Assembly (NCBI GenBank): GCA_036172245.1
Contig: JAYWIR010000031.1
Span: 2,418,001 to 2,482,000 of the forward strand
DNA length: 64,000 bases
From: Raillietiella orientalis
Lineage: Eukaryota
Direction: 5' to 3'
Position numbers and translations under genes: made by a program
Shown: in pieces, positions 1 to 64,000 of the stretch
How the letters are laid out: the number at the start of each line of letters is the position of its first letter
Numbering within the stretch: position 1 is the stretch's first letter
The notes under the pieces: model-generated
What the model was told of the DNA's origin: nothing
What the model saw: the letters and a program-made list of their open reading frames with translations, nothing else
Database searches by the model: none

Positions 1-348
1 GCGCCTTCGTAAAGGCGCGCGCAGTTCGCCCATCAAAAAGGTTGTCTACCTTGTAGACTAGCGAGGGTTTATACCCCGCTTTCTTGTAGGCTTCCATCTC
101 GGCCATGGCTTTCACGCTAGGCGCGGCCACCATGGCGCTCCATGACCTCGGCGTCGCCGGGGACGATCTCGGGGCGGATGCCCCTGATCCAGTAGGCTGT
201 GGGGACGAACAAGCCTCCCCCACGCCTACTCCCATCGCGGTGTCCTCTGGCAACGCTGCCATCGGACACCGACGATGTGCACGCACAAACCACTTAAGAA
301 AAAACCACTCGCCTTGTTACGCAGGCGGAGCGCAGGAAAAGCACGTCC
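1..348 (-). mobile_element. 5' end of family-A non-LTR retrotransposon (5'UTR plus start of ORF1, ATG at 262), running off the left edge
   Basis: Minus strand starts GGACGTGCTTTTCCTG, then reads MAALPEDTAMGVGVGEACSSPQPTGSGASAP...YKKAGYKPSLVYKV, closely similar to the ORF1 N-terminus at 63945. Confidence 0.85.
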
Positions 349-2670
349 TCTCTGCACAGAGGGGATTTGGAGAAGGGGTCGCCAACAGCAGGACTTTCCT
401 GCAGGCGCGCACCATTTTCAGACGGGCTAATGTCAGTCGGCTTGCGGAATACAAGGCGAGAGCCGAGCGCCAGGTCTGGCAGTCTGACGCATCTTGCTTG
501 CTCGGCGAAAAAGGCCTGGAATGCTCGACACCAGCCGATATTCGACGCATCGTAAGGAGTTATTACTCCTCGCTATACGCGGAAGCACCTACGGAAAATA
601 TCTTTTCGAAGATACTACTTTCCCAGGATGCTCCCGCTGTTCGAGAACAGGAACGCTCACGTCTCTACGAGTCCTTCACTGCGGAGGAAATTTCCTCCGC
701 AATCACGAAGCTCGAGAGACGAAAAGCGCCAGGCGAATATGGGCTGCCCGCGGAGTTTTACCAGTGCTTCGCGGTGGAGTTCGTGTCCTTGGTGCTTCGC
801 CTCTCGTCGCTGACGAGGGTTTCGGGGGATGTCCCCAAATCCTTCCTCTCAGCGAGGGTGCGTCTCCTGCCTAAAGGTGGAGACGCACGCCATCTGAACA
901 ACTGGCGTCCGGTTAAATTGGTGAACTCGGACGTCAAGTTGTTCTCCAAGGTGTGGGTTGCGCGCCTTGGGAGAATCGCGCCGTCCTTGGTGAGCCCGGA
1001 GCAGACTTACGCTGTTCCCAAGAGGTCCATGGACGAGAATCTCCGGTTTGCCCGCACCTGGATCCAGCTGCAGGAGCGGGTAGCGCAGCGAAGCTGATCC
1101 GTGTGCAAGGCCGCTGCCAAAGGCACACAGTATCGACAGAAGCGGCAAGAAGGTACGTTGGGTGCCTTGGCGGTCGCAGTCGACCTCCACAAGGCGTTCG
1201 ATTGCTTGAATCAAGGACTCCTATTGTAGGTCTTGGAACGCATGGGTTACCGGCGCAAGTCATAAAGTACTGGCGCGCATGCTGGCGCCACGCGCTAACT
1301 TGCATTTGTTTCAGCGGCTGCAACGTTTACAGTATTCCCCTGCGCAGGGGCATCAGGCACGGTGACAATTTAAGCCCGTTGCTCTTCAGCATTTTCTTTG
1401 AGTCGGTGCTGAGGGTGTACAGGCTGACGCTGAAATTCTTGCGAAGCTCTTGCCCGGGAACGCCTGCCGTGGCTGTCTATGCAGATGACCTGCTTCTTCT
1501 TCTCCCCATGTCCACCCCGGCGTCCAGTGTCGAAGATTTCTTCAAACTGCTTCAACGGGGAGCAGGCGTGAGCGTGAACCGGAAGAAGAGTGTGGTGGTT
1601 CCTGTAGGTGCGTCGTGGGAGAGGCAGTCCTACTGGATCAGCATAGGGATCCCCACGGCAAGGTACTTTAAGTACCTTGGCGTTCCGTTGGGCGACCTCG
1701 GCGCTACCGAGGCGTGGTGAGACTGCTTTCATTAGGCTGATTTGGCCGCCAGCCAGTTCATTAACGGCAAGTTTACCTTGCCAGAACGGGTGGCTATTGG
1801 GAACACCTTCGTGGTGCGCCTCTTCCGAACCCTCTTTTTTGTGATGGACCCCCCCTACGTGGCCAAAGAGCGTGCAAAACGCCTGCTAAGGAACGCTCTC
1901 TGGGAACCGGCGCGATCCAGGATCCAACTGAAAGACCTCACTGCTCCACGTCGGGATGCTGGGCTTGGTATGCTTACGATGGAGAGAATCGGACTGCAAG
2001 TGCAGTTCCGGATGCTCGCACTGTGTGCCGAGCTATGGACTTCCCCTGCGTGCGCCTACGCGCATCAATACGTAAATTTAATGCTCTCCGATGAACTACA
2101 ACGCCTGGAGGCTGGAAACCACGGATTCTTGGGCTGCATTGTTAGGAATGAGCCGTGAAGTTCTTCGCCCCTTGCGTAGATTCCAACCTTGGTCGCTCCA
2201 AGATGTCATGCAGGACGAGGTGAAGTTTTCATCCTTGGCCGCCACTTCACTCGCCGAAGCACTGTCTGCACTCGAGGTTCGAGATGACAGGAGCCAGCCG
2301 GCAAGGTGGGAGTTCTCCTGCACCTTTTCAGAAAGAACAAAACCATTTGGCGAATGGGCCACGAGGAAGCTCGCGGATGCCGCCACTTCTCGTGCTACAC
2401 CGAAGGGGTTACTTCGGTGGGGAGAAGCTCTTGCTGTTGCCCTCGACTAACTTATAATCTCTACCTGATTTTTGGAAAATTCCGGTGTTTCCCCTTGCAT
2501 CGAAGCAGGATGTCTTGCTTTTCTTGCACTGAGGCTTGCGCTACAAGGAGCGGCGCCACCGAGTTTCCGGTGGGGTGGCTTCTCCCTACTGTGCCCGTTG
2601 CGGGGCGACGGAGTCGTTTCCGCACATTGTTATGGATTGCAATGCCCTCTAGGAACTGTGGCAAAGGCTA
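349..2670 (+). pseudogene. Family-B-like ORF2 fragment (linker, RT, C-terminal region) with frameshifts and stops
   Basis: RGFGEGVANS, KAPGEYG, NWRPVKLVN, YADD (in ORF 953-1720) and YLGVP are collinear with the ORF2 at 55324-58761 but spread over several frames. Confidence 0.9.
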
Positions 2671-5395
2671 GCAGCAGCTCTCCTACCACCGGAGGACGAG
2701 ATCCTCTCGGCCATCGGAAAGCTCAAGAGGCGCAAGGCTCCAGGGGAGGACGGCCTGCCCGCGGAGTTTTACCAAACTTTCGCGGCTGAGCTTACCCCCC
2801 TGGTACAGCAACTCACCTTGCTGATACGCGAAACAGGTGACGTTCCCGCCTCGTTTCGTTCGGCAGAGGTGCGGGTCCTCCCTAAGGAAGGAGATCTGAG
2901 GAGCATGAACAACTGGCGTACCATCACAATAGTGAATGCGGACGCCAAGTTGCTGGCTAAGGTTTGGGCAGAGCGTCTGGAACGGGTAGCGGAATCCGTG
3001 CTCGCAGAACTCGCGGGCTTAAGAAGATGTTGGCAACATCTTCTTAAGCCCGACACAGACTTACGCTGTTCCCGGACGAACCATGGAGGCCAACCTGTTC
3101 CTCGCCAGCACCTTTTGGCAGTTGCAACAACGCGAGGCTCAGCTAGGTCGGGAGAGTCCTGGACTCTTCACTGACCGGAGAGAGGGAAGCCGAGGGGAGG
3201 ATGCGGCGCCCGGAGCCCTTGCGGTCGCAGTCGATATGCGTAAAGCTTTCGATTGCGTCGACCAGGGGCTCCTCCTGGAGCTCCTGGAACGCTTGGGATT
3301 TCCGGCCGTCTTCCTGGCGTACCTGCGCTCTTGCAGGCGCTTCGCGCTAATTAACATCAATTTCAGCGGCCGACACGTGTGCGGCGTGCCGGTTCGTCGC
3401 GGCATCCGGCAGGGTGACAGCCTCAGCCCCCTGCTCTTCAGCATCTATTTTGAGTTGGTGCTGAGAGCATACAGGGAAACTTTGGCAACCCTGCCGAGCT
3501 CGTGTTCCGGCACGCCTGCCGGGTCGGCCTATGTTGAGGACCTTCTGCTCCTGTTTCCCGGGTCCACCCCGGCATTGGCGCTCGAGGATTTCTCCGAGTT
3601 GCTGCACCGCGGGACATGACTCGCGGTAAACAGGACGAAGTTGTCGTTACTTCTCACGGACTCGACGCGGGCCGGACGGTCGGACTGGATCCGCTTGGGG
3701 ATCCCCACGGGTAGGTACATCAAGTACCTTGGCGTTCCGTTGGGGGACTTTTGCGCTGCAGAAGCCTGGTCCGACCGTCTACAAAAGGCGGAGTTGGCGA
3801 TCGGCCCGTTCCGGGAAGGCAAGTTTTACTTGCAGGAACGGACCGCGGTGCGAAACGCTTTTGCGGCCCCCCTCCTCGGCCCCGTGCTTTTTGTATTCCA
3901 TATACCTCCCCAAATTCGACAAAGGACAAGGGGCCTCATTACAAAAGCCCTCTGGGACAATCGGAGGCCCCGCGTCCGTCTTAAAGACTTGTGTGCTCCA
4001 CGCAGGGACGGTGGACTTGTTCTCCTGACGCTGGAACGCATGGAGCGACAGCTTCGATTCCGCAAACTTGCCCTTGTGGCAAAGTACTGGACCGCACCCT
4101 GGTGTGCACCTTCACGACTCCTGGCTCACAGGGCAACCGGCTGCAATGGATTGACCTCAATCCTAGTAGCCAACGACCACAGCCTTAACCACTGTGGCTT
4201 CCAGCTACGGGAATCGGTTGCACTGTTGAGAGACAATATGTGGATCTCCTGCATCCCAGCGGACTGGACTACCTGGCTCCAGGAATCCGTTTCCGCATGG
4301 GCTAAAATCAACGGCTCCAGCGATGAGGACTTCTCCTGCCTCCGTAGAGGCAGGCACGCTGGACAGCCACTGCAGGAGATCGTCAGCAACCCACAGAAGC
4401 TTCTGTGGGCCTCCTTTACCCCCTTGCCCCAGTGCTGTTCTCCCTCAGGGAACTTCGGGACAGCCGCCAGGAGGCATCGTGGGAAGTGTCCTGCCTCATC
4501 GGAGGCAGGAAAAAATTATTGAAGGCGTGGACGTCCCGGGAACTAGCGGACGCTAGTACCCCGAGTGTCCCGCCGAACGGACTTTCACACAGGGGCGCGC
4601 TGCTCGAAGTACCTCCGGAGGAGGTGAAGTGGCCCCCAGCGTCATGGGACAACGGCACCCTTCCCCTGCAGTGGCAGGAGACGGCGTTGCTTCTGCTCCA
4701 GTGGGAACTTTTAAGCAGAGCTCGGCTTTCTCACTTGACATCGGGGAGTGTGGATGCTAGTTGTGCAGAGTGCGGGGAAAGAGAAACCTTCCTCCACTTA
4801 ATCATAGAATGCGTTGCCCTCCGCGAGATGTGGAACCGACTCTCGTCGATCCTAAACATTCCGGTGGGCGACCCAAAACATCTATTCAGACGCCTCCTGA
4901 CGCGAGACGGCTTGCCAGCCTCCGGGTGCGTAGCAGTGCTCTGCTGCATACGCGGTATCCTGGATAAGTGGACCGCGTCAAGGAGAGGAAGAACCAGTCG
5001 GAGTGCCATCCACTGGGCAGCGATCTCTTTGGAGAAAGCCTGCCGTTGGCGCCGACTTGGTAAACATTTAGCGGCACTTGTTCGCATCCGAAACGGGATG
5101 CAAAGGCCTCCTCACGGCTCACCGTGATCCCCTCCCTCCCTCCCCAATCCCAAAAAACCTTGCCCTCCATAAGTTATTCTTTTTTTTGTTTTCTATTTAT
5201 TTTTCCCGCCCCTGCGCCAGTGTGAATGACCTTATCGGCCTCAGGATCGGTAAGGACAAGTGCCACTGAACTTCCATGAACGTATAGACGTCCTGAAAAC
5301 AAAAAACATTTTAAAAAAACTAGACTTTATTATGGAATTTTTGTTATTGTAAAAATTTTAGTAATAAAAGCCCCGGCTCCCCCGGGTGAAAAACC
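2671..5395 (+). mobile_element. 5'-truncated family-C element: RT, C-terminal Cys motif (stop at 5127) and complete 3'UTR
   Basis: NWRTITIVNADAK, DMRKAFDCVD, GIRQGDSLSP, YLGVP, CAECGERETFLHLIIEC. The pyrimidine-rich 3'UTR ends AATAAAAGCCCCGGCTCCCCCGGGTGAAAAACC. Confidence 0.9.
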
Positions 5396-5401
5396 TGCGA
5401 C

Positions 5402-5984
5402 GGGAGACGTGAGTCTCACGTCTCCCCAGCCCATGGCGGTGGGGTTGTGCCCCACCACAAAATCAGCCCCCGCCACCCCGGCGACGGCGTGGAACAAGGT
5501 GGCCGCGGCGGCTCCGCCGGACGTGGCTGCAGAATTGCAAGCCTACATAAAAAAGGGCTACAACCCATCCCTCCCTTATAGGGTAGGAAACTTATATTCT
5601 CCGCATACAACGCGGAAATTTGGTAATGCCATCCGTAAGATGGGAATTTCTGACGACGACATTCTTTGCTTCTTGGTTCGGAGCGGCGGGCAGTTCGCGG
5701 AGCTGATCTGCCGAGATGCAGCGCTCACGCACAAACTGCTCTGCACGCCCGTTCCGTTCGAAGGGCGGAATTTCCTCCCACACACGGTGGATCACTCTAT
5801 GGTGCTCCACCTCACTGGTACAACGGTGCGGATGACCGATGAAGCCATCCGCACCGAAGTTAACAAGTTCGCAGAGATTTACGCGATGTGGAGGAAGCCC
5901 AACGCCTTCACATATCGAGGCTCATTCAGTGGGCGACTTGCCGCTCGCGTAAATTTCCGCGATAATGTCGAAATTCCCCACAAG
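5402..5984 (+). pseudogene. ORF1 (gag-like) N-terminal fragment
   Basis: WNKVAAA..AELQAYIKKGYNPSLPYRVGNLYS...RSGGQFAELIC...LHLTG matches the other ORF1 copies (9817-10290, 11539-11859, 18203-18499, 63730-63945). Confidence 0.8.
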
Positions 5985-6085
5985 GCATCGCTGCCATCGG
6001 ACACCAACGATGTTCCACACCAAAAACAGCACAAGAAAAAACCGCTTCCTCTCGACTCACTGAAGAGCGCAGGAAAAACACGTCT
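5985..6085 (-). mobile_element. Isolated ~100-nt 5' terminus of a family-A element (5'UTR plus first codons, ATG at 5997)
   Basis: Minus strand GACGTGTTTTTCCTGCGCTC...CATCGTTGGTGTCCGATGGCAGCG matches the 5' end at 348-262. Confidence 0.8.
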
Positions 6086-9028
6086 ACTCGCCAAGGGATT
6101 TGGCTAAGGGGCTCGCAACGAACGCGCGTATTTGCACGCGCGTCGTCACGAGAGGAACCCCAATGTCCATCGCCTGGCCGAATACCGGGCCGTAGCCGAG
6201 CGACAAGCCTGGCAATTCGGGTCAGCCAGCATGCTGGATGACTTGGGCCGGGAACTTTCGTCCCCGACTGCGGAACGGAATCTCGTGCGGTGTTTTTATT
6301 CCTCTCATTACGCCAAAACACCACCCGAACAAGACGCCTCGCGGCGATTGCTCATGAGTGGTTCCGTGGCGATAGGGGAGGAGGAGAGAGAAAGTGTCGA
6401 TGAGCCTTTCACGACCGGTGAAATTCTCGCCGGTATCAAAAGGCTTAAGAGGGGTAAGGCGCCAGGGGAGGACGGCTTGCCCGCGGAGTTCTTTCAGAGT
6501 TTCGCGAAAGAGCTGGCCCCCCTGGTGCTCGAGTTGACAAGGCGAATCCGAGACGAAGGCGATGTTCCCGCCTCGTTTCGGTCAACCAGGGTGAGGCTCC
6601 TCCCGAAGGGAAGAGACCTCAGGAAACTTTGCAACTGGCGTCCCATCACGATTGTGAACACGGACGCCAAGTTGACTGCCGGGCTGTGGGCGTCGCGATT
6701 GGGGCAGGTGTCGAATTCCATAATTAGCCCGGAGCAGACATACGCTGTTCCCGGGCGAAGTATGGAGGACAACCTCTTCTTCGCGAGCACATGGATGCAC
6801 GCGCAGCGGAGTAAGAAAGAAGGGAAAGGGAAAATTTGCAACCCTCCTTTTGGGCCGCCAGTGAGACAGGGTAGGGACCCTCATGCGGGAAAGGGGGCCT
6901 TAGCGATCGCAGTCGACCTCCATAGGGCATTCGACTGTGTTGACCAGGAACTCCTCTTTTAGCTCCTGGGTCGCATAGGCTTCCCACCCTCCTTGATTAC
7001 CTTCCTGCGCTCTTGCTGGCGGAACGAGATAATCTCGATTACTTCCAGTGGTCAAAAGGTGTATGGCGTGCCGGTGCGGCGGGGCATAAGGGAGGGCGAC
7101 AGCCTCAGCCCCCTGCTCTTTAGCACCTACGCTGAGTTGATGCTGAGAGCGTACAGGGTGACTTTGGCCCCCTTGCCGAGCTCGTGCCCCGGGACGCCAT
7201 CCGTAGCGGCGTATGGCGACGATCTTCTGCTCCTCTTACCTATGTCCACCCCGGGGAAGGCGGTCGGAGATTTCTTCGACCTGCTTAGCCGTGGGGCCGG
7301 ATTACAGGTTAACAGGGCGAAGTCGTCGGTGGTGCCAGTTGGAGCGGCGTAAGTAGGGCAGCAGGACTGGGTCCGTCTAATGATCCCCACGGTGAGGTGC
7401 ATCAAGTACTCTGGTGTGCCGTTGGGGGACTTCTCCCCTGCGGAAGCGTGGTCCAGCTGCCTCCAAAAAGTCAAGACGACGATCGGCCCGTTCCTGGAAG
7501 GCAAGTTTCACTTGCCTGAACGGGCCGCGGTTTGGAACGCCTTCGCGGCCCCCATCCTTCGCCCCTTGCTTTTTGTTTGCCCCGCCCCCGTGGAATCTAA
7601 AAAGAGGACGAAGGACCTCCTCCACATAGCCCTTTGGGGCAAGGGGAGGCCCCGAGTCCCTTTGAGGGACTTGTGCGCTCCGCGTCGGGACGGCGGTCTC
7701 AGCATCCTGACGCTGGAACGCGTGGAAATCCAGCTGCGATGGCGAACCCTCGCCATCGTAGCGAAGATGTGGAGCACCGCTTGGTGCATTCCGGCCCGCC
7801 TCCTGGCTAGGCGTGTGTCCCGCTGCGAAGGACTCGCATCGTTTCTTCTGTGTCCTGGCCGGAAGATTCGAAGATGCGGTCTACTGCTCGGCCGCATGGG
7901 AATCCTGGCAAAGGAGAACGACTGGATGGCCCCGCCAACTCCTCCGCTTGGCTGGAGGAGACTGCTGGCACCTGGTCCAAGCAGAACCAGAGATGCGAAG
8001 ACCGGATGAACTGTCTGCGAGTCGGCTTTTACGCCCTCCGAACTCTCCGTGAAATTCTTGAATTTCCACCGAGTTGCACGTGGGCGGAAGGCACACCCCT
8101 TGTTACTGCGATGCCCTTCCTCCAAAGGGCGCTTCACGAAAGCCGGAAGCCGAGGTGGCAAGTCTGCTGCGGTATCGCAGGCAGAGAGAAGATGATGAGC
8201 GGCTGGACCATGGGAGAGTTGACAGATGCAATGACCCCTAGTCTCCAGCCGCGTGGATTAAGAAAATGGGCGAGCTGCTCGGCATTCGATTGGATGACCT
8301 GAAGTGGCCCCCGGTTCTACTTGGATCCAAAATTCTTACCCTGAAGTGGAAAGAATCGGCGCTTCTGTGGCTGCATTGGGGTCTACCCTGCAACGCGCGC
8401 CGCTTCCACTGGACGCGGGGAAGAGTAAATCCAGTGTGTGCCAGGTGTGGGGAGCAGAGTCGCTCCCCCACCTCTTAGTTGAATGCCCTGCCGTCCGGAT
8501 TCTTTAAGATCGTCTTGAAACGGCCCTTGGGATACCGGATGGTGGCACCGTTGGATGTGTTTACAGTCTTGTCTTCGTGCGGGACGCCCTCAGTCCAGCC
8601 GCAGCCCTGGCAGCACTTTGCGGCATTCGTGGTATCGTGGCGGCCTGGAGTTATGCCGAAGATAAAGATTGCATCGTGAGGGACGTCATCGAGTATGCTT
8701 CTCGCTTCCTGCAGAGAGCTACCCGATGGCTCCATCTAGGAAAATTGAAAATGGAACTAGAAGGCATCCTGTAAAGGATGGGCCCTCCCAGCAGTTTTGT
8801 GTGATCCCTTTCCAGCCCTCCAAACTCCTTTTGTTGTTTGTTTTTCTCTTTTTATTTTTTTTTTGTTTTCTCCCCCATCCCCCTCCACTGCCGAGGAGAG
8901 CCACACCGGGCTGCGTCTTGGTGTCCCGGCAGTTCCGGTATTGCGTGGCTGTCAGTGGGGCCTTGTACCACGTTCTGTATTGACTGTTGAAATGTTTTTA
9001 ATAAACGTCCCGGCGTATCCGGGTGGCA
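6086..9028 (+). mobile_element. Family-A ORF2 (linker, RT, C-terminal region; interrupted) with complete 3'UTR
   Basis: KAPGEDGLP, NWRPITIVNTDAK, DLHRAFDCVD, YGDD, CARCGE. Collinear with 60720-62246 and 59950-60751; ends AATAAACGTCCCGGCGTATCCGGGTGGCA. Confidence 0.9.
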
Positions 9029-9641
9029 TCGCCGAATCCTGGAGGAAGTTGATGGAGGGGAAACTGGTCGCAGAACTCTCGGACTGAGAGTTTTATTTTG
9101 TCCCAGTCAGCGAGATTCTGCAGTTCGCAACCACGCAGGAATGCACGCAGATGTTCGCGCGCTCCTGCGAGTCGCAACCAGTCTCCTGGCAGGCGCCACG
9201 CTTCGGAGGGTGGACCTCTGTCGCGCGGATGGATGGTGAACACTAGCCGAGGGTGATCGAACAGCTCCGACGCAAGTGCGCCTCGAGTCCACACCCGCGT
9301 GCACAGGTGGTTATCGAGGAACACGTGGTCGATTCTGCGTCTCACGTCGGCTTCATCTGCCAACAAGTTCGCGCTTGCATCGACGCACTCGACTCGTTGA
9401 CCAGTTGTGCCCTTATGTCGGGCGCTTCCGACAGCAGGCGGACGTTGAAGTCTCCCGCTATCATATGCGCCCGCCGCACGCCTGCTACGGCCAAGTCTCG
9501 CCGCAGGGCTTCGAAGAACGCAGTACGTTCCACGCGCCTGTGGCTGCTGCTGGGCGGGTGCACGTTCTTGACCACGAGGTCGATCGAGTCCGACCACTTG
9601 AGGACAAGTTGCCCAACTCGACCTTCCTAGTCAAAGTGCAC
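9029..9641 (-). pseudogene. AP-endonuclease domain fragment of ORF2
   Basis: KNVHPPS, IAGDFN, RIDHVFLD, LFDH, WRLPGDW, WDKIK and LPPGFG over two frames. Confidence 0.9.
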
Positions 9642-12007: not shown

Positions 12008-12075
12008 GTCCTAACGGGCGTAAAGCATTCGGCTTCGTCGACCAGGATTTCCTTCTGGAGCTCCTGGACCGCATA

Positions 12076-52405: not shown

Positions 52406-52417
52406 TGCGCGCTGGGC

Positions 52418-53420: not shown

Positions 53421-54952
53421 GCGCCCAGCTGCTGCTGGGCGCGTACACGTTCGTGACCACGAGGCGATGGAGGTGAGACGTCCACTCCCACCGAATCGGT
53501 CCCCGATACAGCACGGGCGTGGAGCGCCGTCGTAGCGGCGCCAACGCCTGCAGCCGCGGCGGAATTGAACGCCTACTTAAAGGACGAGTATAACTCCTCT
53601 CCTCAACAAGGTAGGCAATCTCTATGCCGGCCAGTTTCGAGGCCGACAAGCAGGCGCTGGACTAGGACTGCCTCTTCAAAGTGCATTTCCCAGTGTCCAA
53701 GCGTAAGGCGTCTGGTCTCTACCCAGAAGTCGGTAACTTGCGGGCCCGAGGCAGAGTTCGCAAACGCAGCTTCCATCCCCGTGGCACCCCGCAGGAAGGC
53801 TGGACGAAGGTCCACCAATCCACCGAAGACCCTTTCCCTTGCCGAAGAGGAGGACATGGCTTCCGGAAGCGAGGGTGCCATTAGCGTGGGCGAATCCCGG
53901 AACTCGTCGCCTGAGAGAATCCTACGCTCAGACACGGAGGGCATTGAAGGGGTACAAACCGTACAGGTGTCGCAGGGGCCTCAGAAGGCCGAAACTCCCA
54001 TGTCCATCTCACCCGCCTCGGAAGAGACTCCTCGCCAGAAGAGCGACACGCTGCGGAGGATTGCCCTCGATCCTCGTGGCCTACCAGCGCAGCCTCAACA
54101 ACCAGCTTTCATCTGCTTCAGATGGTTGCTCTGATGAGGGAGAATACCTGGATCTCCTGCCTACCGGCGAACTGCACTGCCTGGCTTCAGGAGTCAGTTT
54201 ACGCGTGGGCCAAGATCAACGGCACAAGCGAGGCGGATAACAAGTGCATCTGTCGAGGACCCAAAGCTAGACAGCCCCTGCAGGAGATCATCAACAAGCC
54301 GCGAAAGCTTCTGTGGGCTTCTTTCATTCTCCTTGCCCCCGTTCTGTCCTACCTGAAGAACATTGGGAGCAACAACGAGGTAGCATCGAGGGAAGTGTCC
54401 TGCCTCATGCGAGGCAGGAGAAAACCTTTTAAGGCGTGGACGAATCGGGAGCTAACGGACGCTGCCACCCCGAGCGTCCCGCCTCGAGGACTTGCGTGCT
54501 GAGGAGAACTGCTCACAATAACTCCGGAGGAGAAGTGGTCCCCAGCGTGTTGGGATAGTGGCATCCTTCCGTCGAACTGGCAGACGGCGTTGCTCTTCCA
54601 GCATTAGGGACTGCTAAGTACAGCACGGCCGAGGTTCCTCCTCCGTCGAGGCCTGTATCCGAATCGGCCTCGACGGAGGAGGAAGAACTGGTGCGCGATG
54701 CACCCCCTCCATCCGTTCCGCCCGATAAGGTGGCGGGAACCGTACTGCCACGTTCCCACGAATAACCCCTGGGCTCGCCTGTCGCCGAAGGATCCGCGTG
54801 GCCTGTTGGAATGTACACGGGCTGCGCGACGACGGCAACAGGCGAGATACAGCCGACACCCTGCGAGAATTCGAACTGACGCTTATGCAGGAGATCCACG
54901 TGATCACTGCAAGAGACGTCGAGGAGATCGAGAGGATCGCAGAAGATCGGTT
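53421..54952. mobile_element. Fine patchwork: endonuclease scrap (-), ORF1 pieces (+), family-C ORF2 piece (+, about 54040-54625) and ORF1/endonuclease junction (+, about 54660-54952)
   Basis: LVVTNVYAP (-); AELNAYLKDEYN; ENTWISCLPANCTAWLQES; CACGAATAA followed by ACWNVHGL..MQEIH. Confidence 0.8.
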
Positions 54953-55323
54953 GTTTGTCACCCGGTTGCGCCGGGGCGTTTATTATAAACTATCCGGGAA
55001 CAGGGTTCCCGGACAAAGGGGAAAACAAGAGACGAAGGGGGTGGGATCCCCGACACGCAGGTCGGTATGCCGAAAGTCCGGAACGGGAGGGAAGGGACCA
55101 CAAACACACTACTATATAAAAAAATAAAAGAAAAATATGGAGGGCAGGGGACAGGGGTCTTTGGTAAATCCGTTCCTTCCTTTCAAAACCGGCGATGGAT
55201 GCCGGCGATCTCTCTCCTTACGCCCTGTGGCAGATGGGCCCACTGGGCAGCCGACGACATGTTTGCGCTGGCTAATCCGTTGGGCTGACGAAGGATGGCC
55301 AGCTTCTCCAACTCTCGGTGGGC

Positions 55324-58300
55324 CTAGTCGAAGGCGCGGGTGCAACACACGGTTGCAACGACAGCACCCAATGACAGGCCGCCTGGGGTGAAGAAGCGGC
55401 GCATCAACTCCCTCGCGGTGTCCCCCTGGTGCAGGAGAGCTGAGGACAGCCTCCGCCAGAGTCCTAGAAGGGCACCGCAGTCCAGGAGGAGGTGCGGGAG
55501 CGTTTCCACTTCCCCGCACCTCTTACAGTTTGGGGAGACGACTCCCCCGGAAACAAGGTTCGTGCGCTGGTTGGAGTGAAAACTCCAATGCACCAGCATA
55601 CTCACGTCCTGCTTCCACGAAAGGGGGAACACAGAAGTGTTCAGACACGAGGGAGGAACCACAAGTTCTTCAAGGGGCACACTCAAGTGTTCGCTCCACC
55701 GAAGGAGTCCCTTCGGAACGTGGCGAGGTGTGGCGGCGTCCGCCAGCTCGCAAGTCTTCCAGCCGCCAATAGGTCGCGTTGTTCCTGCGAGGGTGCAGGC
55801 GACCTCCCATCTCGCCGGTTCGCAACTGTCATCTCTTGCCCTGAGGGCTGACAGTGCGTCTTCGAGGGGGGTGACGGCCAGGCGGGTCCACTTCTCCTGG
55901 CTGTTGCACACCTCATCCACCGTGCAGTACGGGGAGAGGTGAGCGCAACGGAGTTCCAGGAGGGAAACATCCTGGTGCTTTGCCCAGCCATATAACGGTT
56001 CCTGCCGCCAGGCTTCAAAGTTCGTTGGGCGGCAGGAGATCCATTCCTGGGCTTCCAGGAGCCGATACAGCGGTTTCAAGGGGAAACCGAAGCTTCTCGT
56101 GGCGCGCTCCGTGTGCGGCCGCAGCGACAGAAGTCCATCGCTGCCTGTGCAGCGCCGCAGAAGCAGGCGCGCAGGAGCGCACCACGGAGTGGACCAAAGG
56201 TTGGCGCACAGGGCCAACATCCGAAGCTGCACCTGCAGCTCGATTCTCTCCAGCGTCAGGATGCCTAAGCCAGCATCCCGACGCGGAGCCGCCAAGTCTT
56301 TGAGGCGGATCCTGGACCTCGCAGGTCCCCACAGAGCGTTCCTCAACAGGCTGTGCGCCTGGAGCTTGGCCGAGTAGGGGGGCGGGCAAACAAAAAGCAG
56401 GAGGCGCAAGAGGGGGGCAACGAAGGTGTTCCATATCGTGGCCCGCTCCGGCAGGACGAACCTGCCATGGTGGAACGGGCTCAGGGCATTCGAAGCCTTC
56501 CGAAGGCAGTCCGACCACACTTCCACTGGGCTGATGTTCCCCAGCGGAACGCCCAGATATTGCACGGAGGAAGCGGTCGGGATCCCCAGGCGGATCCAGT
56601 CGGCCTGCCCCACCCACGCCGCACCAATAGGTACGACCACGCTCTTGCTCCGGTTTACGCTCATGCCCGCTCCCCGGCGAATCAGCTCGAAGAAATCCTC
56701 GAGACTGGACGCCGGGGTGGTCATGGGTAAGAGGAGACGCAGGTCGTCAGCATAGGCCGCCACGGACGGCGTTCCTGGACAAGAGCTCGGCAGGTTGGCC
56801 AGCGTTAGCCTGTACGCGCTCAGCACCAACTCCAAGAAGATGCTGAAGAGCAAGGGGCTTAAGCTGTCGCCCTGCCTGATGCTCCGCCGCGCCGGCACGC
56901 CGTGCACGTGGCAGCCGCTAAAAGAAATGGAAATGAGCGCGTGGCGCCAGCAAGCGCGCAAATACGCCACGAGGTGCACCGGGAAACCGAGGAGTTCCAG
57001 GAGCTCCAGCAGGAGATCCTGATTTACGCAATCGAACGCATTGCGGAGATCGACCGCGACCGCCAAGGCACCCGGCGCTTCCCCAGGCCGAATGCAGCGA
57101 CGCCTAGCCTCGGCAGCCGCACACGCGGTTCCCTGGCTGTCGTGCGCCACGCAGCGTTGCAGCTCGAGCCACGTGCGCGCGAAGAACAGGTTCGCCTCCA
57201 TGGACCGCCCGGGAACAGCGTAAGACTGCTCCGGACTTACCACGGATCCAGCGATCCTGCCCAGGCGCGCGACCCACAGCCTGGAGAACAACTTGACGTC
57301 CGCATTCTTCAAGGTGATGGGACGCCAGTTGCTTAAATGGTGCATGTCTCCGCCTTTCGGCAACAGACGCACCCTTGCTGAGCGAAACGAGGCCGGGACA
57401 TTGCCCGTCTCTCGCATCAGCGCAGAAAGCCTCAGCACCAGGGGGATGAGTTCCGCCGCGAAGCACTGGAAGAACTCCGCAGGCAGACCATCCTCACCTG
57501 GCGCCTTGCGCTTCTTGAGGCCCGCTATGGCGGAAGACACGTCTTCCGCCGTGAAGGGCAAGTCAAGAGTGGCGCGTTCCTCCTCGTCGACCGCCGGGGA
57601 ATCCGCCGGCAGAAGCAGCTCCGAGAGACTGCGTTCCGTCGGCTCCCTAGCGTACAACAAGGAGTCATAGCGCTTTAGGAGGCGGCGAACTTCGGCCGCG
57701 CCCGAGCACTCCAGGCCCTGGTCGTCGAGCAGACAAGCTGCTCCTGACTGCCAGACCTGGCGCTCGGCCTTGGCCTTGTACTCCGCAAGGTACCGGACGT
57801 CCGGGCATCGGAAGAATTGGCGGGCCTGCAGAAACTCTCTGCTGTTGGCCACGCCTTCCCCGAAGCCACGGGGAAGCAGGCGCAAGGGGAACCGGCTGCA
57901 GAACTCGCGGACCGATCTTTTCAGATCGTCCCAGTCCACGAGCTCTCGAACGGCAAAGGTCCGGAGATGCTGGCGGAGGTGCTCCGCAGCCACCGGATTT
58001 CTCAACCAGTCGGCCGGCAACCTCCAGACGTGCGTCGGAGGGCCCTTGCCAGGCGGGAGTAGCTCAAACTCCAGCCTGTAGTGGTCGGAAAGCTCGGACG
58101 GCACGGGACCTCTTCGACCCACCCGACAATGCAGGTGATCGTCGAGGAACACATGGTCCGGCAAAGCACGCATTACGGGATCGTCGGCCAGCAAATTCGA
58201 GGCGTGCACCGACGCGCACACCTCGTTCACCAGCCGTTTCTCCCGGCGACGGTGAGACTTCTCCGATAGCGCGTGGACGTTGAAGTCCCCGGCTACGAGG

Positions 58301-58761
58301 TGAGCCACGTCGGGGCCGGAGTTGCTGAGCCAGCGGTCGCGCAGTCTCTCGAAAAACTCCAGTTTCTCGGTGTGACGCGCGGAGCCGCTCGGCGCGTACA
58401 CGTTCGTGACGACAAGGTTGATCGATTCGGACCACTTGAGAACAAGTTGGCCCACACGACCTTCCTCGTCGAAACAAACGCTCCGCACCGCTCCCGCCAC
58501 CCTGCCCCGGACAAGGAATGCGACTCCGCAGGTATTCTGGGAGCCTGACCTCCAATGGAGCGTCCCGCCTGCTCGAACTTGCAGATCGGCCGCTTGCTGC
58601 TCGGAGAGTGCGTGAATCTCCTGCAGCAGGGCCAGATCGAAATCGCGCAAGACGTTGGCAACCAATCGCCTCTTCTCGTTGTCCTGCAGCCCGTTGGCGT
58701 TCCAACAGGCCACTCGGACGCGACGGGAAAAAGCAACACCGCGCATTGCTGCTACGGACAT
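55324..58761 (-). CDS. ORF2 polyprotein: AP endonuclease, reverse transcriptase and C-terminal Cys motif (1145 aa from the ATG; premature stop, native end probably 55183)
   Basis: WN, LQE, NVYAP, GDFN, DH and SDH (endonuclease); KAPGEDG, NWRPI, DLRNAFD, RQGDSLSP, YADD and YLG (RT); CKRCGEVETLPHLLLDC. The TAG at 55324 corresponds to AAG in the copy at about 14090. Confidence 0.93.
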   Translation of the reverse strand: MSVAAMRGVAFSRRVRVACWNANGLQDNEKRRLVANVLRDFDLALLQEIHALSEQQAADLQVRAGGTLHWRSGSQNTCGVAFLVRGRVAGAVRSVCFDEEGRVGQLVLKWSESINLVVTNVYAPSGSARHTEKLEFFERLRDRWLSNSGPDVAHLVAGDFNVHALSEKSHRRREKRLVNEVCASVHASNLLADDPVMRALPDHVFLDDHLHCRVGRRGPVPSELSDHYRLEFELLPPGKGPPTHVWRLPADWLRNPVAAEHLRQHLRTFAVRELVDWDDLKRSVREFCSRFPLRLLPRGFGEGVANSREFLQARQFFRCPDVRYLAEYKAKAERQVWQSGAACLLDDQGLECSGAAEVRRLLKRYDSLLYAREPTERSLSELLLPADSPAVDEEERATLDLPFTAEDVSSAIAGLKKRKAPGEDGLPAEFFQCFAAELIPLVLRLSALMRETGNVPASFRSARVRLLPKGGDMHHLSNWRPITLKNADVKLFSRLWVARLGRIAGSVVSPEQSYAVPGRSMEANLFFARTWLELQRCVAHDSQGTACAAAEARRRCIRPGEAPGALAVAVDLRNAFDCVNQDLLLELLELLGFPVHLVAYLRACWRHALISISFSGCHVHGVPARRSIRQGDSLSPLLFSIFLELVLSAYRLTLANLPSSCPGTPSVAAYADDLRLLLPMTTPASSLEDFFELIRRGAGMSVNRSKSVVVPIGAAWVGQADWIRLGIPTASSVQYLGVPLGNISPVEVWSDCLRKASNALSPFHHGRFVLPERATIWNTFVAPLLRLLLFVCPPPYSAKLQAHSLLRNALWGPARSRIRLKDLAAPRRDAGLGILTLERIELQVQLRMLALCANLWSTPWCAPARLLLRRCTGSDGLLSLRPHTERATRSFGFPLKPLYRLLEAQEWISCRPTNFEAWRQEPLYGWAKHQDVSLLELRCAHLSPYCTVDEVCNSQEKWTRLAVTPLEDALSALRARDDSCEPARWEVACTLAGTTRPIGGWKTCELADAATPRHVPKGLLRWSEHLSVPLEELVVPPSCLNTSVFPLSWKQDVSMLVHWSFHSNQRTNLVSGGVVSPNCKRCGEVETLPHLLLDCGALLGLWRRLSSALLHQGDTARELMRRFFTPGGLSLGAVVATVCCTRAFD

Positions 58762-59555
58762 GGAGGTGCGTTCCTCGCCCCGTCCGGCGAGGCACCAGCC
58801 GGGAGCACGGCGGATGAGGTAGCGCAAGCGCTTCCTGTCCCCGCCGCGCCGCTCGCGGCCGGCTCGGTGGAGTCGAGGACCATTGCCTCGGGCTCCGAGG
58901 AGCATCGGGAACCGTTCCCGGCATCAGGCTCTTGCCTGGCAAGTTTTGGCTTGCGCGCAGCCCTGGCCTTGACCGGGGCTTGGCGAGCCTTAGCGCTGCC
59001 CTCGGACTCCACCTCGGAGTCCGGATTGCGCGCGCGCGGCGGGCGTTTCGCCTGCCTCTTTGTTTGCTGGCAGCCCGGAGCTGGTCCAGCACTCTTAGAG
59101 GGTGCCTCCATCGCCGATCCCCCTTTCGGGGTCACGGCTTCGGCATCTCCCCTCTCGCCGCGGGTGTTTGCGGCGGCGCGCGCGGCGGTAGCAGAGGCTT
59201 TTCCTTGCGCCTTTCTGGGCGCGCGGGGTTGCCTCTTCACCCCGCCTACCTTTTGGATCGGGAAGTGGGAAGGATCGCGCGGTTTGCGCTCCTTCTTTCT
59301 CCCGACGAAGGTCCAGCCATCCTCGCCGCCTTCCTGTTTGCCCCGGTTGGGCGCGAGGGCTTCCAGGGTCCTTCGCATCCTTTCCAAGGCCTCGGATACG
59401 GCGATGGAGGCCAGTGTCTCCTTCGCCACGTCTGCCTTCTGCACCTCCTTACCGGGAGGTGCGGGCACAGTGGCGGGATTCTCGGGTGTCGCGCGAGGCT
59501 TTTCAGCCTTTGCTGGCGTTCGGCCCGCTGTGGCCGGCTTACCTGTCGCGGGCAA
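58752..59555 (-). CDS. C-terminal, Ala/Pro/Lys-rich part of family-B ORF1
   Basis: Open frame whose stop overlaps the start of ORF2. It contains GWTFVGRKK, resembling the W..V..KK motif in the other ORF1 tails. Confidence 0.7.
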   Translation of the reverse strand: MPATGKPATAGRTPAKAEKPRATPENPATVPAPPGKEVQKADVAKETLASIAVSEALERMRRTLEALAPNRGKQEGGEDGWTFVGRKKERKPRDPSHFPIQKVGGVKRQPRAPRKAQGKASATAARAAANTRGERGDAEAVTPKGGSAMEAPSKSAGPAPGCQQTKRQAKRPPRARNPDSEVESEGSAKARQAPVKARAARKPKLARQEPDAGNGSRCSSEPEAMVLDSTEPAASGAAGTGSACATSSAVLPAGASPDGARNAPPCP

Positions 59556-59949
59556 AGGGGCGCGCGACCCCTTTTTTGACGCTCCGGTGGTCTTCCCGGG
59601 CGTGCCACCGCTATTTCGCTCCGGAGCGAGAGCGGACGGAAGCGGCGGTGGTTTTGCAGCCTGCCCGATGTTATCGGCGGGCTGGGTCGCTCGGGGCTTT
59701 ACTGAAGCAGCCTGGAGAAGCTTCTTGTCCTTTCGCGCGGGTTTTTGTGGAGCATTGCTCCGAGAATCGCCCGCGCAAGCGGACTTTTCACTTCTCCGCT
59801 GAGAATGCTCGTTCGCGCCTGATTTCTTCTCCGACGACGGGGCGGATGGAGTCGGCGCGGACGGCGATGTTGCGGGGAGGTTTCTCTCCCTCCTCTTTCG
59901 TTTCAGCTAGGCGCACTCGTTAATCGACTGGCCGAGCAGCTTACAGTAT

Positions 59950-60751
59950 CCACGGGTGAACTGGCGGACGCCAGTACCGCTACCGTCCAGCCGAGAGGAC
60001 TCCAGAGATGGGGTGAGCTACTCGGCATCCAGCCGGATGACCTGAAGTGGCCCCCGGTATTAATTGGATCTAGGATCCTCCCCCTGAAGTGGCAAAAGTC
60101 GGCGCTTCTGTTGCTGCATTGGGGTCTACCCTGCAACGCACGCCGCCACCACTGGACCAGGGGTCGAGTAGATCCTACCTGCATCAGGTGTGGGGAACGG
60201 GAAACTCTCCCCCACCTCCTTGTTGATTGTGCTGCCCTCCGACCCCTGTGGGAACGTCTTCGTGCCTCCCTACGGATCCAGGAGGGCAGCCAGCCCAGAG
60301 ACGTTTTTCGGCTGCTGTTCGTGCACGATGCCCTGCGTCCAGCCGCAACCCTGGCTGCACTTTGCTGCGTACGCGGGATTGTGACGTGCTGGAGCAACGT
60401 CGGAAGACCGAGCCACGACAGGGATGCCGTCGTAATTGCAGTCCGCTACCTGCGGATTGTGACCAGTTGGCCCCACCTGGGAATTATACGGACGGACCTC
60501 GAGGGCATCCTGCGAAGGATGGACCCTCCTCCCAGTGGTCAGTGATCCCTCCCCAACCCTCCCAAATCTTTTTGTTTTTATGTTTCATTTTTCTTTTTGT
60601 TTTTTCCCCCACCCCCTTCCGCTGCCGAGGAGAGTCGCGCCGGTCTGCGTACCGGCGACCCGGCAGGTCCAGTTGAGTTGGCCGTAGTGGGGCCTCGTAC
60701 CAGGAATCAAAGAGAATTTTTAATAAACATCCCGGCGTGACCGGGTGGCAA
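59950..60751 (+). mobile_element. Family-A C-terminus (stop 60545) plus complete 3'UTR
   Basis: WGLPCNARRHHW..CIRCGERETLPHLLVDC; ends AATAAACATCCCGGCGTGACCGGGTGGCAA. Confidence 0.9.
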
Positions 60752-62246
60752 CTATCAACTTGGCGTCCGTATTCACGATCGTGATCGGACGCCAGTTCTT
60801 TAAATTCCTGAGGTCTCCCCTTTTCGGAAGGAGCCTCACTCTGGCTGACCGAAACGAGGCGGGAACATCGCCTTCGTCTCGGATCAGCCTGATCAACTTG
60901 AGCAGCAGGGGTGCCAGCTCTTCCGCGAAGCTCTGAAAGAACTCCGCGGGCAAGCCGTCTTCCCCTGGAGCTTTACGCCTCTTGAGCCTTTTGATACCGG
61001 CGAGAATTTCGCCGGTGGTAAAAGGCTCGTCGAGGCTTTCCATCTCCTCCTCCCCTATTGCCGGGGCGCCATCCGGAAGCAAGCGCCGAGAGGCGTTTCG
61101 ATCCGGGAGCTGCCTGGCGTAAAGGGAGGAATAAAAACTCCGCACGAGATGCCGTACCGACGCCGGGGACGAGCATTCCCGGTCCTGGTCGTCCAGCAAG
61201 CTGGCCGACCCGAATTGCCAGGCTTGGCGTTCTTCCCCGGCGCGGTACTCGGCCAGGCGACGGACATTAGGGGTTCTCTCGTACCTACGAGCCTGTAAAT
61301 AGGCCCGATGGTTGCGAGGATCCTCGCCGAATCCGGGGGGCAGGCGGTCCAGGGGGAACTGTTCGCTTAACTTCCGGACCGAGGCCTTGAGAAGGTCCCA
61401 ATCCGAGAGATTCTGGAGCGTGACGCCTCTCTGGAATTCGCGAAGGGGTTCCTTCGCACCTGAGAGTCGCGTCCAGTCCCCCGGCAGACGCCAATCCCTG
61501 GATGGCGGTCCCTTTTCACGAGGCCGCATCTCGAAAATTAACCGGGAATGGTGCGACAACGTCGAGGCAAGCTTCCCCCGTTTGCCGACCCGTGAACACA
61601 GGTCAGCGTCGAGGAAGACGTGGTCGATGCTGCAGACCATTCCCCTCTCACCCGCGAACAAGTTGCGCGCACGCATGGCGGCGCACACCTCGTTCATCGC
61701 GTTTTCTTGTGTTTCTGGCTCACCTTTTAGCAGACGAAGATTGAAATCTCCCGCTATCAGGTGAGCCTTCCGCACGTTCGTGTCTGCCAGCCAGTCGCGC
61801 TTCAGGGATTCCAGCAGCCTGGTGCGGTCGCTGTATCCCTTTTTACCGCTGGCGTCGTACACATTCGTGACGATCAGTTCGATCGAGTCGGACCAGCTGA
61901 GAATCAGCTGACCGACCCGACCGTCGTCATCGAAGCGCACGCTTTTCACGGCAGCGTCGATGGCCGGCTTCACGAAGAACGCGACCCCGCAGGTGTTGCG
62001 GAGGCCGCACCGCCAATACAGCCGACCCCCCGCGATCGTCTCGATCTCCTGGACGTGCGCCGCGGAGATCACGTGGATCTCCTGTAGCAAGGCCAGGTTG
62101 AACTCACGCAGTGGGTCGGCTGTGTCTCGCCTGTTGCCGTCGTCGCGCAGCCCGTTGACATTCCAACAGGCGGCGCGAATCCGACGGCGACTGGCGAGCC
62201 CAGGTGTTATTCCTGGGAAGATGGCGATGCGGCATCCGCCACCTGT
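60752..62246 (-). CDS. Family-A ORF2, N-terminal half (endonuclease, linker, RT start), cut off by the antisense 3' end at 60751
   Basis: Frame open from 62246: ACWNVNGL, LQEIH, TNVYD, GDFN, IDHVFLD, KAPGEDG, NWRPITIVNTDAK. Confidence 0.9.
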
Positions 62247-63945
62247 TTAGGCGGGACGCTAGGTGGAGGAGGAGGGTCAGGTGCTGAAGGCACCTGGTCC
62301 CCCTCCTCCACTGGTAACGGCGCGTCGGCCGGTTCACCCTCAGGTGGGGTCGCGCCTCCCTGTTCGCCCTCATCCATGGGGGCGGCCTGTTCAGGCTCGG
62401 CGACTGCTGGGAAGACTTCGCCCCCCAGTTTCCCCTCCTCCATGGGGGTGGCCTGCTCGACGGCTTACGTGCGTTGGAATTCCACCTCCGGGTTTCCCAC
62501 GCTGGCGTCGGTTTCCTGCTTCTCCTCCTCGCTCGTGGAGGGGAGGCGCCTCCTCGGCTTTTGGGACTTGCGTCCCGTCTTCCGAGGGGGTGCCTCCGAC
62601 GAGGAGGATGCACTTCCGGCCCCCAGGTCGCACTCACCTGCGGGGGCCTTCTTTGCCGGAGCCGGCCTTCGCACGGCCTTGCGTGAGGGGTTTTCACGCT
62701 CGGCCAGCGTGACCGCGAGCTCCTCCGCCGCCTTCGCGAAGGCGGCGTCCTCGCCGTCGGCGCGCGTCGCGCGGCTCACCCTCTGTGTAGACAGAGGGTT
62801 CGTCGTCGCGAACCTCGGGCGCGGTGGAAACGGCGAGGGGATTCTCGTCGCCCCGGGAGGCAGCCTGAGGAACGCTTACGCGATCCAGTGCTACCGAGCA
62901 CTCGCGGAGTTTTTTTGACAGCGGCGCGGCTTTATTCTTTTTGCCGGCTGTGTTCTTTTTCTCCGTTTTCTTCAGTGGTTCTTTCACCACTTGTTTCTCC
63001 TTCCTGGCCTTTACCAGTTCCATCCCTACTCCACTCCCGCGTCTTCCGCAGTCTTATCCTCCGACGCCTGCGTGAGAGGAAGAGGAGATGGCGGCTGGGG
63101 CCAGCTAGTTTCTCGCTTAGGTCTTTCGACCTTGTTCATTTGTTTGGCCTGCTCCTTTTTGGCAGCAGGTGGCACCGGAGTGGGGCATTTAGGGCACGCA
63201 CGACGCACGTGTCCCTTAACCCCGCACAAGTGGCACTCAATGTTCGGGCACCGCTTGCGCAAGTGCCCTACTGCATTGCAGTAGCCACAATAGCGGGGTT
63301 TCCCCACGTACCAGAGGTCGCCGGATTCCGTCGCGACCTTCAGTTTGTGGGGCAACCCAGCACCCTCATTGACAGTGACACGCTGAAGCCTGGCCTTCGA
63401 AATGGCTATGAAAGCCTTCGAAGATGGTGGGCTTTGGCCACAACGCGTGTACCTCGCCGTATTTCATCAACTCGGAATTGACCGCCGAGCGCGTCATCCG
63501 GTCAGACGGACCACTACGGAGCGGTCCATGCTAACCGGTAGGATTTTCCGGCCATCCACATTCAGCGGGGTGTTTATCAGGCGCTGTGCTAAGGCTACGT
63601 CTTTGCAGACGACCTCCACTCGCTGCCCCCCGCTGAGTACGGAGAGGCCGTCAAGATCCTCTTCTCTTACAGGAAAGTCCTGTAGTGCCTTGTTAAAAGC
63701 ACGGGCGATGCGACCATCAAACAGGGGTCCTACTTATAAACCAGAGATGGTTTATATCCTGAGGCCCTGTAAGGCGCTTGCTCCGCCAAGGTTTCCGCGC
63801 TCGGCGCTGCCACCATGGCGCTCCACGTCCTCGGCGTTGCCGGGGATGATTCCGGGGCGGATGCCCCTGATCCAGTAGGCCGTGGGGGGGGACTAGCCTC
63901 CCCCACGCCTACCTCCATCGTGGTGTCCTCTGGCAGCGATGCCAT
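62207..63945 (-). pseudogene. Family-A ORF1 (gag-like, two CX2CX4HX4C knuckles), interrupted
   Basis: ATG at 63945; CGYCNAVGHLRKRC and CHLCGVKGHVRRAC; ends PSSQE-stop at 62207; split over several ORFs. Confidence 0.88.
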
Positions 63946-64000
63946 GGGACACCAACGATGTGAAAAAACACACACTTCCCAAGAAGAAACGCTTCCCGGT

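Follow-up and report, generated by a model that had tools for sequence, protein, structure and literature searches.

Nested LINE Clusters in a 64-kb Window of Raillietiella orientalis, with Recurrent Antisense Landing Sites inside the ORF2 of Related Elements

Long interspersed nuclear elements (LINEs) that form dense clusters have been described in green algae: in the available parts of the published accounts, Zepp of Coccomyxa has 61% GC against 53% for the genome and forms local GC peaks (PMC3446292), and the ZeppL clusters are highly localised (PMC8226300). We analysed a stretch of 64,000 nucleotides of Raillietiella orientalis (assembly GCA_036172245.1, contig JAYWIR010000031.1, positions 2,418,001 to 2,482,000), hereafter the window. 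As far as those partial accounts allow comparison, it resembles the Zepp and ZeppL systems (L1 LINEs of Chlorella, Coccomyxa and Chlamydomonas) in that its LINEs lie almost only in clusters nested in one another, and in that these clusters, like the Zepp peaks, are GC-rich. Three blocks (1-21000, 29200-37500 and 52000-64000) with 51-63% GC alternate with DNA of about 40% GC and are nests built of LINE fragments, and all 17 recognisable LINE termini lie within LINE DNA. According to our analysis, the nest itself is real, Zepp-like and ordinary in kind, and the recurrent antisense landing sites found inside the second open reading frame (ORF2) of its elements would, if they hold genome-wide, represent a modestly novel variant. 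All counts given below refer to this one 64-kb window, which was picked post hoc.

There are also differences from the algal clusters. In contrast to Zepp, in which the nests involve one family and the element carries poly(A), the nests of the window hold several diverged families, their 3' ends form a hairpin without poly(A), and the one host exon of the window is closest to animal and fungal proteins (best identity 59%). Furthermore, the recurrent antisense ORF2 sites of the window have no counterpart in the available portions of the Zepp accounts (PMC3446292, PMC8226300). If confirmed, these sites would offer a simple sequence-level cause for self-nesting LINE clusters; Zepp-type clusters are still without a shown mechanism.

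The second group for comparison comprises the site-specific LINEs, such as R1 and R2 in the 28S ribosomal DNA, Tx1L in the Tx1D transposon, and TRAS and SART in telomeric repeats, for which annealing of the RNA 3' end to the target, or its recognition there, is a known theme. Fragments were mapped by blastn and tblastn onto two references from within the window, an intact copy (A) and a second copy (B); positions are given as n, the nucleotide position in ORF2, on a scale that runs from a 5' terminus near n -1643 to a 3' terminus at n 3971, and families are named after their 3' ends (alpha to zeta). As in the site-specific LINEs, independent copies use the same nucleotides of a repeated target in a fixed orientation, with three events at n~1050 and two at n~370. 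Unlike in those LINEs, the target is the coding sequence of other LINEs, and the specificity is partial (three sites in five events for gamma-tailed or gamma-like copies, three places in three events for the alpha family). Because the families use several sites, instead of having nearly all their copies at one target, they do not belong among the site-specific LINEs.

The elements are LINEs of the apurinic endonuclease (APE) type: their ORF2 encodes APE and reverse transcriptase domains and a putative C-terminal cysteine motif, and their ORF1 carries a CCHC knuckle. A minus-strand frame at 55324-58923 is open for 1199 codons and matches Exo_endo_phos (E 5.7e-15) followed by RVT_1 (E 2.2e-18), and the ORF1 of the copy at 60752-64000 (minus strand), which lies upstream of ORF2, matches zf-CCHC with 23.1 bits (cut-off 20.8). 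At the C-terminus of ORF2 the zf-RVT match is sub-threshold (17.6-18.2 bits; cut-off 27.5), and a conserved domain of 79 amino acids upstream of the CCHC motif in ORF1 had no Pfam match. The L1/Tx1-like clade is characterised by a nucleic-acid-binding domain and a CCHC knuckle in ORF1 and by a zf-RVT-type cysteine motif at the end of ORF2, and the elements of the window are at most candidates for it. The protein search with ORF2 returned five distant matches only, with identity of at most 31% and none named as a known LINE; the nearest Atlas clusters combine RVT_1, Exo_endo_phos and zf-RVT and are generic, without taxa. Among the hallmarks of this type of LINE, 11 3' termini share one module and the 5'-truncation points vary among copies; a target duplication, of 15 bp, is seen at one insert only. 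The poly(A) or A-rich tail of L1 proper is absent, the 3' ends consisting of a hairpin with a tail of 8-15 nt. In total, the nests comprise at least five related families of one APE-type LINE.

An earlier note on this DNA had listed eight 3' termini (5395, 9028, 14460, 17116, 32912, 52566, 54953 and 60751) and six 5' termini (348, 6085, 9642, 12007, 17709 and 52418), and both sets proved to be real. All eight 3' ends share a module in which an AATAAA-like signal and a CCCGG..CCGGG hairpin are followed by a short tail. Poly(A) is lacking, and the tail differs among families: it reads GTGAAAAAC in the alpha family, CTGACAAAC or GTGACAAAC in the beta family and GGGTGGCA in the gamma family; the delta and epsilon types occur once each, and terminus 32912 is better set at ~32925. 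Three further 3' termini, absent from that list, were recognised at ~30346 (minus strand), ~31515 (plus strand) and ~33908 (minus strand), the last two being degenerate and representing a sixth type, zeta. The six 5' termini open with GACGTGTTTTTCC, with similarity extending over ~100-150 nt, and they are true ends because no such sequence is present in the intact ORF2 at the positions that two of them adjoin. The copies ending at 12007 and 52418 have 32 further nt in common upstream of GACGTGTTTTTCC, which moves their true ends to ~12039 and ~52387.

The most frequently used site lies at n~1050. The 5' junctions 348 and 6085 and the 3' junction 9028 map to one spot of 21-25 bp in ORF2, in the codons for PPGFGE, and all three are antisense. 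The 3' junction places the nick on the host sense strand, directly after GGATTCGGCGA, and the two 5' junctions begin 25 and 21 nt upstream of this nick, as expected of target priming with one target duplication. All three inserts are of the B/gamma type. In a tree of the adjoining 560 nt, the host at 349-941 groups with the A copy and the host at 6108-6675 with the B copy (split support 100/100), and in a second tree the host at 9029-9642 falls outside both groups. Seven copies in the window span n~1050, three with the site filled and four with it empty, and the empty-site copies include members of these clades. Because the three hosts belong to different clades, each with empty-site members, they are not copies of one composite, and the recurrence is independent. 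Among the 17 junctions there are five pairs that agree in both site and orientation, for which a uniform null gives p ~0.002; for the triple alone it gives p ~0.03. When both strands of the B copy are compared with the terminal 21-mer of the gamma 3' end, the best match (16/21) coincides exactly with this hot site and is antisense. Read on that strand, the PPGFGE codons (61324-61343 and 9029-9048, both minus strand) resemble the LINE 3' hairpin and tail. Such mimicry was also looked for at the alpha, beta, delta and epsilon sites and was not found there.

The second recurrent site belongs to the beta family, whose 3' junctions 14460 and 54953 lie at one position, n~370, both antisense. One of the two inserts has the intact ORF2. 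The inserts agree with each other at 86%, more closely than the host arms do (75.5% and 67%); thus the inserts are younger than the split of their hosts. The two beta copies are also truncated at different points (n 1889 and n -1025).

Two events are legible on both sides. The alpha insert at 52567-53457 (minus strand) splits a plus-strand 5' untranslated region (UTR) and is flanked by the 15-bp duplication (13/15 identical), and the alpha insert at 15845-17116 splits one minus-strand host (17709-17117 and 15827-14461) with the loss of ~45 nt of target. The target duplication and the target deletion indicate true target-primed insertions. Several other junctions cannot have arisen by simple insertion, among them the convergent 3'-truncated pieces near 10300, the 5' stub of 102 nt (5984-6085), and position 2697/2698, where n 3504 meets n 1376. 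Therefore, the nests also underwent deletions and rearrangements.

As for the flanks, the statement of the earlier note that all 14 termini abut LINE fragments holds for these 14 and also for the enlarged set, in which LINE-derived DNA adjoins 17/17 termini by tblastn or blastn (at 17709, the first 345 nt of the flank were assigned solely through contiguity with the CCHC match). LINE DNA covers ~44.5 kb (70% of the window), and the probability of this result under a uniform null is therefore 0.70^17, or ~0.002 (post hoc). The companion statement that none abuts AT-rich DNA is correct for recognisable termini; it does not extend to the cluster edges at 29207 and ~37503, which are 5'-truncated ends on AT-rich DNA, and older LINE pieces lie inside the AT-rich parts (40411-43489 and 46819-47101).

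The orientation of the junctions gives a less uniform picture. Twelve are antisense (348, 6085, 9642, 52418, 9028, 14460, 17116, 30346, 32925, 52566, 54953 and 60751) and five are sense: 5395 adjoins plus-strand ORF1, 12007/12039 a minus-strand C-terminal piece of ORF2, 17709 minus-strand ORF1, and 31515 and 33908 each adjoin same-strand ORF2 at n~600. The 12 antisense cases counted previously among 14 become 11, since 12007 abuts the same-strand ORF2 fragment at 12040-12402 (minus strand). The strong general antisense bias claimed for the locus is not shown, because the ratio is 12/17 over all termini (two-sided binomial p 0.14) and 8/11 for the 3' junctions alone (p 0.23); in addition, five of the 12 antisense cases sit at the two recurrent sites. 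The strand content is balanced (23.3 kb plus, 21.3 kb minus) and the orientation alternates; therefore, the window, which the earlier note likened to a small-RNA cluster, is not a uni-strand array.

The segments of the three clusters and the intervening DNA are as follows (Z and Z2 are the two hosts of the beta inserts).

1..348, minus: B/gamma-like LINE, 5' UTR and ORF1 N-terminus, 77% to the copy at 63687-63990; its 5' terminus 348 meets, in antisense orientation, the hot site (n~1045) in the ORF2 of 349..2697
349..2697, plus: A-lineage ORF2 fragment, n 1045-3504; host, hot site filled, target-duplication copy at 349-373
2698..5395, plus: 5'-truncated alpha-family LINE, n 1376 to the 3' terminus 5395, which adjoins same-strand ORF1
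5396..5983, plus: another LINE, 5' UTR (from about its position 122) and ORF1; 25-nt palindrome at its start
5984..6085, minus: first 102 nt of a B/gamma-like LINE; 5' terminus 6085 antisense at the hot site
6086..9028, plus: B-lineage gamma-tailed LINE, n 1042 to the 3' terminus 9028; both host and insert, hot site filled, duplication copy at 6086-6106
9029..9642, minus: third-lineage ORF2 fragment, n 1067-447; entered antisense at n 1067 (3' junction 9028) and n 447 (5' junction 9642)
9643..10300, plus: 5' part of a LINE, from its terminus 9643 to a break at ~10300
10301..12039, minus: LINE 5' region (UTR and ORF1), 5' terminus 12007 or 12039, adjoining a same-strand fragment; probably one element with 9029-9642
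12040..12402, minus: host Z, right arm, a piece from the C-terminal end of ORF2 (n 3543-3186)
12403..14460, plus: beta-family LINE, n 1889 to the 3' terminus 14460, antisense in host Z at n~370
14461..15827, minus: host Z, n 370 to -1013 (ORF2 start and ORF1)
15845..17116, plus: alpha-family LINE with an internal deletion (n 1302-1916 and n 3380 to the 3' terminus 17116), antisense in host Z; target deletion of ~45 nt
17117..17709, minus: 5' terminal 593 nt of host Z; 5' terminus 17709 adjoins same-strand ORF1
17710..18648, minus: older ORF1 fragment (CCHC and upstream domain), 48% GC
18657..20976, plus: two older ORF2 fragments, n 2970-3600 and n 1842-3530; cluster edge at ~21000
29207..30345, plus: 5'-truncated LINE, n -222 to 975, truncated end on AT-rich DNA; host of 30346..31226
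30346..31226, minus: epsilon-family 3' part, 3' terminus ~30346, antisense
31230..31515, plus: degenerate 3' UTR, 3' terminus ~31515, adjoining same-strand ORF2 at n~600
31516..32925, plus: ORF2 in pieces, n ~600-816 and then n 2500 onwards as far as the delta-type 3' terminus (~32925), which adjoins an opposite-strand ORF2 fragment
32928..33907, minus: ORF2 pieces, n 3390-3110 and n 1358 to ~600
33908..37503, minus: older LINE, degenerate 3' terminus ~33908 adjoining same-strand ORF2; 5'-truncated end ~37503 on AT-rich DNA
40411..43489, plus: old decayed LINE inside an AT-rich stretch, with an ORF1 CCHC trace and ORF2 traces of 22-40% identity; no recognisable terminus found
52021..52386, minus: ORF2 fragment, n 2763-2398, at the cluster edge
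52387..52566, plus: LINE 5' end, 5' terminus 52387 or 52418; 52552-52566 is the left copy of the 15-bp target duplication
52567..53457, minus: 5'-truncated alpha-family insert, antisense; right copy of the 15-bp duplication at 53458-53472
53458..54664, plus: rest of the interrupted 5' region, then an ORF2 piece, n ~2800-3396
54675..54952, plus: left arm of host Z2, n 79-370
54953..59949, minus: beta/A-family LINE with the open 1199-codon ORF2 (55324-58923), 3' terminus 54953, 5'-truncated in ORF1; antisense in Z2 at n~370, its own hot site (57857-76) empty
59950..60751, plus: host Z2, right arm from n 3165 onwards, ending in the gamma-type 3' terminus 60751; antisense in 60752..64000 at n 1636
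60752..64000, minus: B-family LINE, n 1636 to ~30 nt short of the 5' end; contains ORF1 (CCHC) and the portion of ORF2 that encodes APE; hot site (61324-61343) empty

We hold, with moderate confidence, that the LINE nests grew by target priming, that family-specific landing sites fixed the orientation of the inserts, and that deletions and rearrangements followed. New copies would be target-primed by reverse transcription into older copies, giving rise to nests that later deletions and rearrangements would scramble, and each family would prefer short targets within other LINEs. The B/gamma family would nick the host sense strand after GGATTCGGCGA and enter antisense with a target duplication of 21-25 bp, and the beta family would enter antisense at n~370. 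A preferred site would fix the orientation because the target sequence is asymmetric; the antisense excess is probably mostly the sum of such site preferences, with no separate strand rule. The likeliest cause, judging from the sequence, would be sequence-directed nicking through a preference of the endonuclease or the ORF2 protein, and the hairpin-like sequence at the gamma site possibly contributes, in that the protein may read hairpin-like bases. The proposal that insertion is directed to related elements and to one strand thus stands in its first part, given the 17/17 termini in LINE DNA and the independent reuse of identical sites, and probably operates through nicking-site preference; strong direction to one strand was not borne out. 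RNA-DNA pairing, put forward as one route to such targeting, is left with a slight hint in the gamma family only, the other families being without a mimic at their sites.

Several points weigh against this reading. The evidence comes from a single window, picked post hoc, and the overall orientation (12/17) lacks significance. Most events fit simple insertion on one side only. Gamma-tailed or gamma-like copies are also found at n 1636 and n 447, which makes three sites in five events, and the alpha family occupies three places in the 5' region in three events, once in the sense orientation. The hairpin mimic concerns one family and one host type, a comparable match being absent from the A-type host. 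No common nick motif was seen by eye across the 3' junctions, nine of 11 of which have uninterrupted homologues, and similarity between insert end and flank was marginal at one of 11 junctions (p 0.044, uncorrected for multiple tests). Both beta loci have a host gap of 2.8 kb in common, the right arm resuming at n 3165 (59949/59950) and n 3186 (12402/12403), which hints at a common origin or at an already-deleted host family; such an ORF1-only family would explain the gap, and no uninterrupted example of it was found in the window. Finally, the two degenerate junctions in sense orientation (31515 and 33908) could represent an old inverted duplication: their alignment, at ~62%, continues across the junction, and insert and flank have diverged about equally.

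A bolder version of the preferred scheme, which we regard as possible and advance only tentatively, is that the window holds a guild of LINE families homing onto each other, with short targets in the coding region or 5' UTR of rivals. The gamma target would be a chance mimic of the family's own 3' hairpin, located antisense to the PPGFGE codons, the target would set the orientation, rivals would be disabled and unique DNA spared, so that the arrangement would amount to hyperparasitism of LINE on LINE, with site-specific landing pads in ORF2. More doubtful is passive accumulation, in which insertion is near random, copies survive in gene-poor, low-recombination "safe haven" DNA, and the orientation excess and common sites arise by chance. 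The overall orientation (p 0.14) and the absence of a common nick motif agree with this explanation, and unique DNA has been entered as well, as seen from the two 5'-truncated cluster edges and the old LINE pieces in AT-rich DNA. However, it has to accommodate the five same-site, same-orientation pairs (p ~0.002) and the triple (p ~0.03), the 17/17 recognisable termini in LINE DNA that makes up 70% of the window, and the arrangement of the hot-site junctions (5' and 3'), which fits one target duplication. An unlikely explanation is that a few ancestral composite blocks were multiplied by segmental or inverted duplication; the repeated junctions would then not be independent insertions, and the event count would be inflated. 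Alignments do run through junctions (12403-14755 with 57035-54665 at 83%; 249-2053 with 5984-7787; 31515 with 33908), and both beta loci lack the host from n 370 to ~3170. On the other hand, the n~1050 hosts belong to different clades with empty-site members in them, the beta inserts are more alike (86%) than their host arms (75.5% and 67%), and the truncation points of the beta copies differ (n 1889 and n -1025).

The earlier note had also considered that sense insertions are removed by recombination between direct repeats; the orientation at insertion would then be random. Internal one-strand deletions are indeed common (for example, n 1916 to 3380 at 16457/16459), although they give no direct support, and this course of events is very improbable: likeness is ~63% between A- and B-lineage copies, as far as these were compared, and at most 86% between any two distinct copies in the window, which makes them poor substrates for homologous recombination; five sense junctions persist; and the reuse of identical nucleotide positions is left unexplained. 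We give even less credence to the possibility that the mosaic is an assembly artefact produced by chimeric joins between repeat copies. The region is highly repetitive and has no independent read support, but its closest distinct copies, at 86%, are too divergent to confuse an assembler, and one insert has a target duplication. Inverted homologous pieces lying side by side are only ~60-65% alike and never near-identical foldbacks. The likeness of at most 86%, together with junctions exactly at element ends, argues against chimeric assembly.

If the recurrent sites hold genome-wide, they would provide a natural case in which non-LTR (long terminal repeat) elements single out the coding sequence of their relatives as a specific target. 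Short DNA substrates would then allow tests of how a LINE with a hairpin end recognises its target, and the locus would show how a guild of elements grows while sparing genes. If the sites fail to hold, the window is an ordinary old LINE nest.

Other nested or inverted arrangements offer further points of comparison. In humans, the bias of L1 copies inserted into L1 is reportedly tied to the TTTT/AA nick site and poly(A). In the available part of a survey of human nested transposable elements, inserts use specific hotspots along the targeted element, the nick site is given as TTTT/AA, and the L1-into-L1 orientation bias is towards sense, with 21,559 sense and 9,899 antisense cases (Levy, Schwartz, and Ast, 2010; PMC2836564). 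Within the limits of that excerpt, the window is similar in having hotspots, whereas its elements are GC-rich and without poly(A), and its recurrent sites are antisense. The flamenco locus is a uni-strand cluster for PIWI-interacting RNA (piRNA) that consists of dense, nested retroelement fragments. Such dense nested fragments, which could give antisense transcripts, are also present in the window; unlike in flamenco, its strands are balanced (23.3 vs 21.3 kb) and the orientation alternates. In L1 twin priming, an inverted LINE piece is attached to a 3' part in sense orientation, and joins of this appearance occur in the window, but here the inverted pieces derive from other families and either start at true termini or cover coordinates that the sense part also covers. 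Twin priming as the source of the inverted junctions was rejected on geometry (a 5' terminus is joined to n~1045, and antisense n 3543-3186 lies beside sense n 1889-3971).

Within the second cluster, the blocks facing each other around 32925 (31230-34200) each contain a degenerate 3' UTR, ORF2 from n~600 and a C-terminal piece of ORF2; they are ~62-64% alike and may be an old inverted duplication. The delta-type 3' UTR in this cluster contains a T-rich imperfect short tandem repeat (32725-32782). A long alignment had suggested that 32925 and 60751 are one junction, which proved to be a bridging artefact. In the 5' UTR, a palindrome around GAGACGT lies at about positions 110-150 (5404-5428; 52530-52590 and 53458-53490), and two alpha-family insertions, one sense and one antisense, are located within ~25 nt of it.

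The Rfam scan of the window gave no match. In the Logan contigs of one sequencing run (X1), 8% of sampled words were present, no RNA run being listed among those that contain them, and among the pieces aligned at 80% likeness, 357 of 515 were less than 90% alike and represent relatives of the window LINEs; these LINE relatives have no bearing on the junctions either way. A metagenome scan with the gamma 3'-end pattern returned 77 loci, which were rejected as chance matches in GC-rich contigs (AATAAA signal upstream in 0/77; median GC 67.5%).

Between the second and third clusters, an exon at 45299-45583 (plus strand) encodes the N-terminal half of phosphopantothenoylcysteine decarboxylase, its closest relatives being animal and early-fungal proteins; a motif search for further exons of this gene found none. 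The observed/expected ratio of CpG is ~1.0 in most LINE fragments, compared with 0.77 in non-LINE DNA, and amounts to 0.16 in the isolated LINE fragment at 46819-47101.

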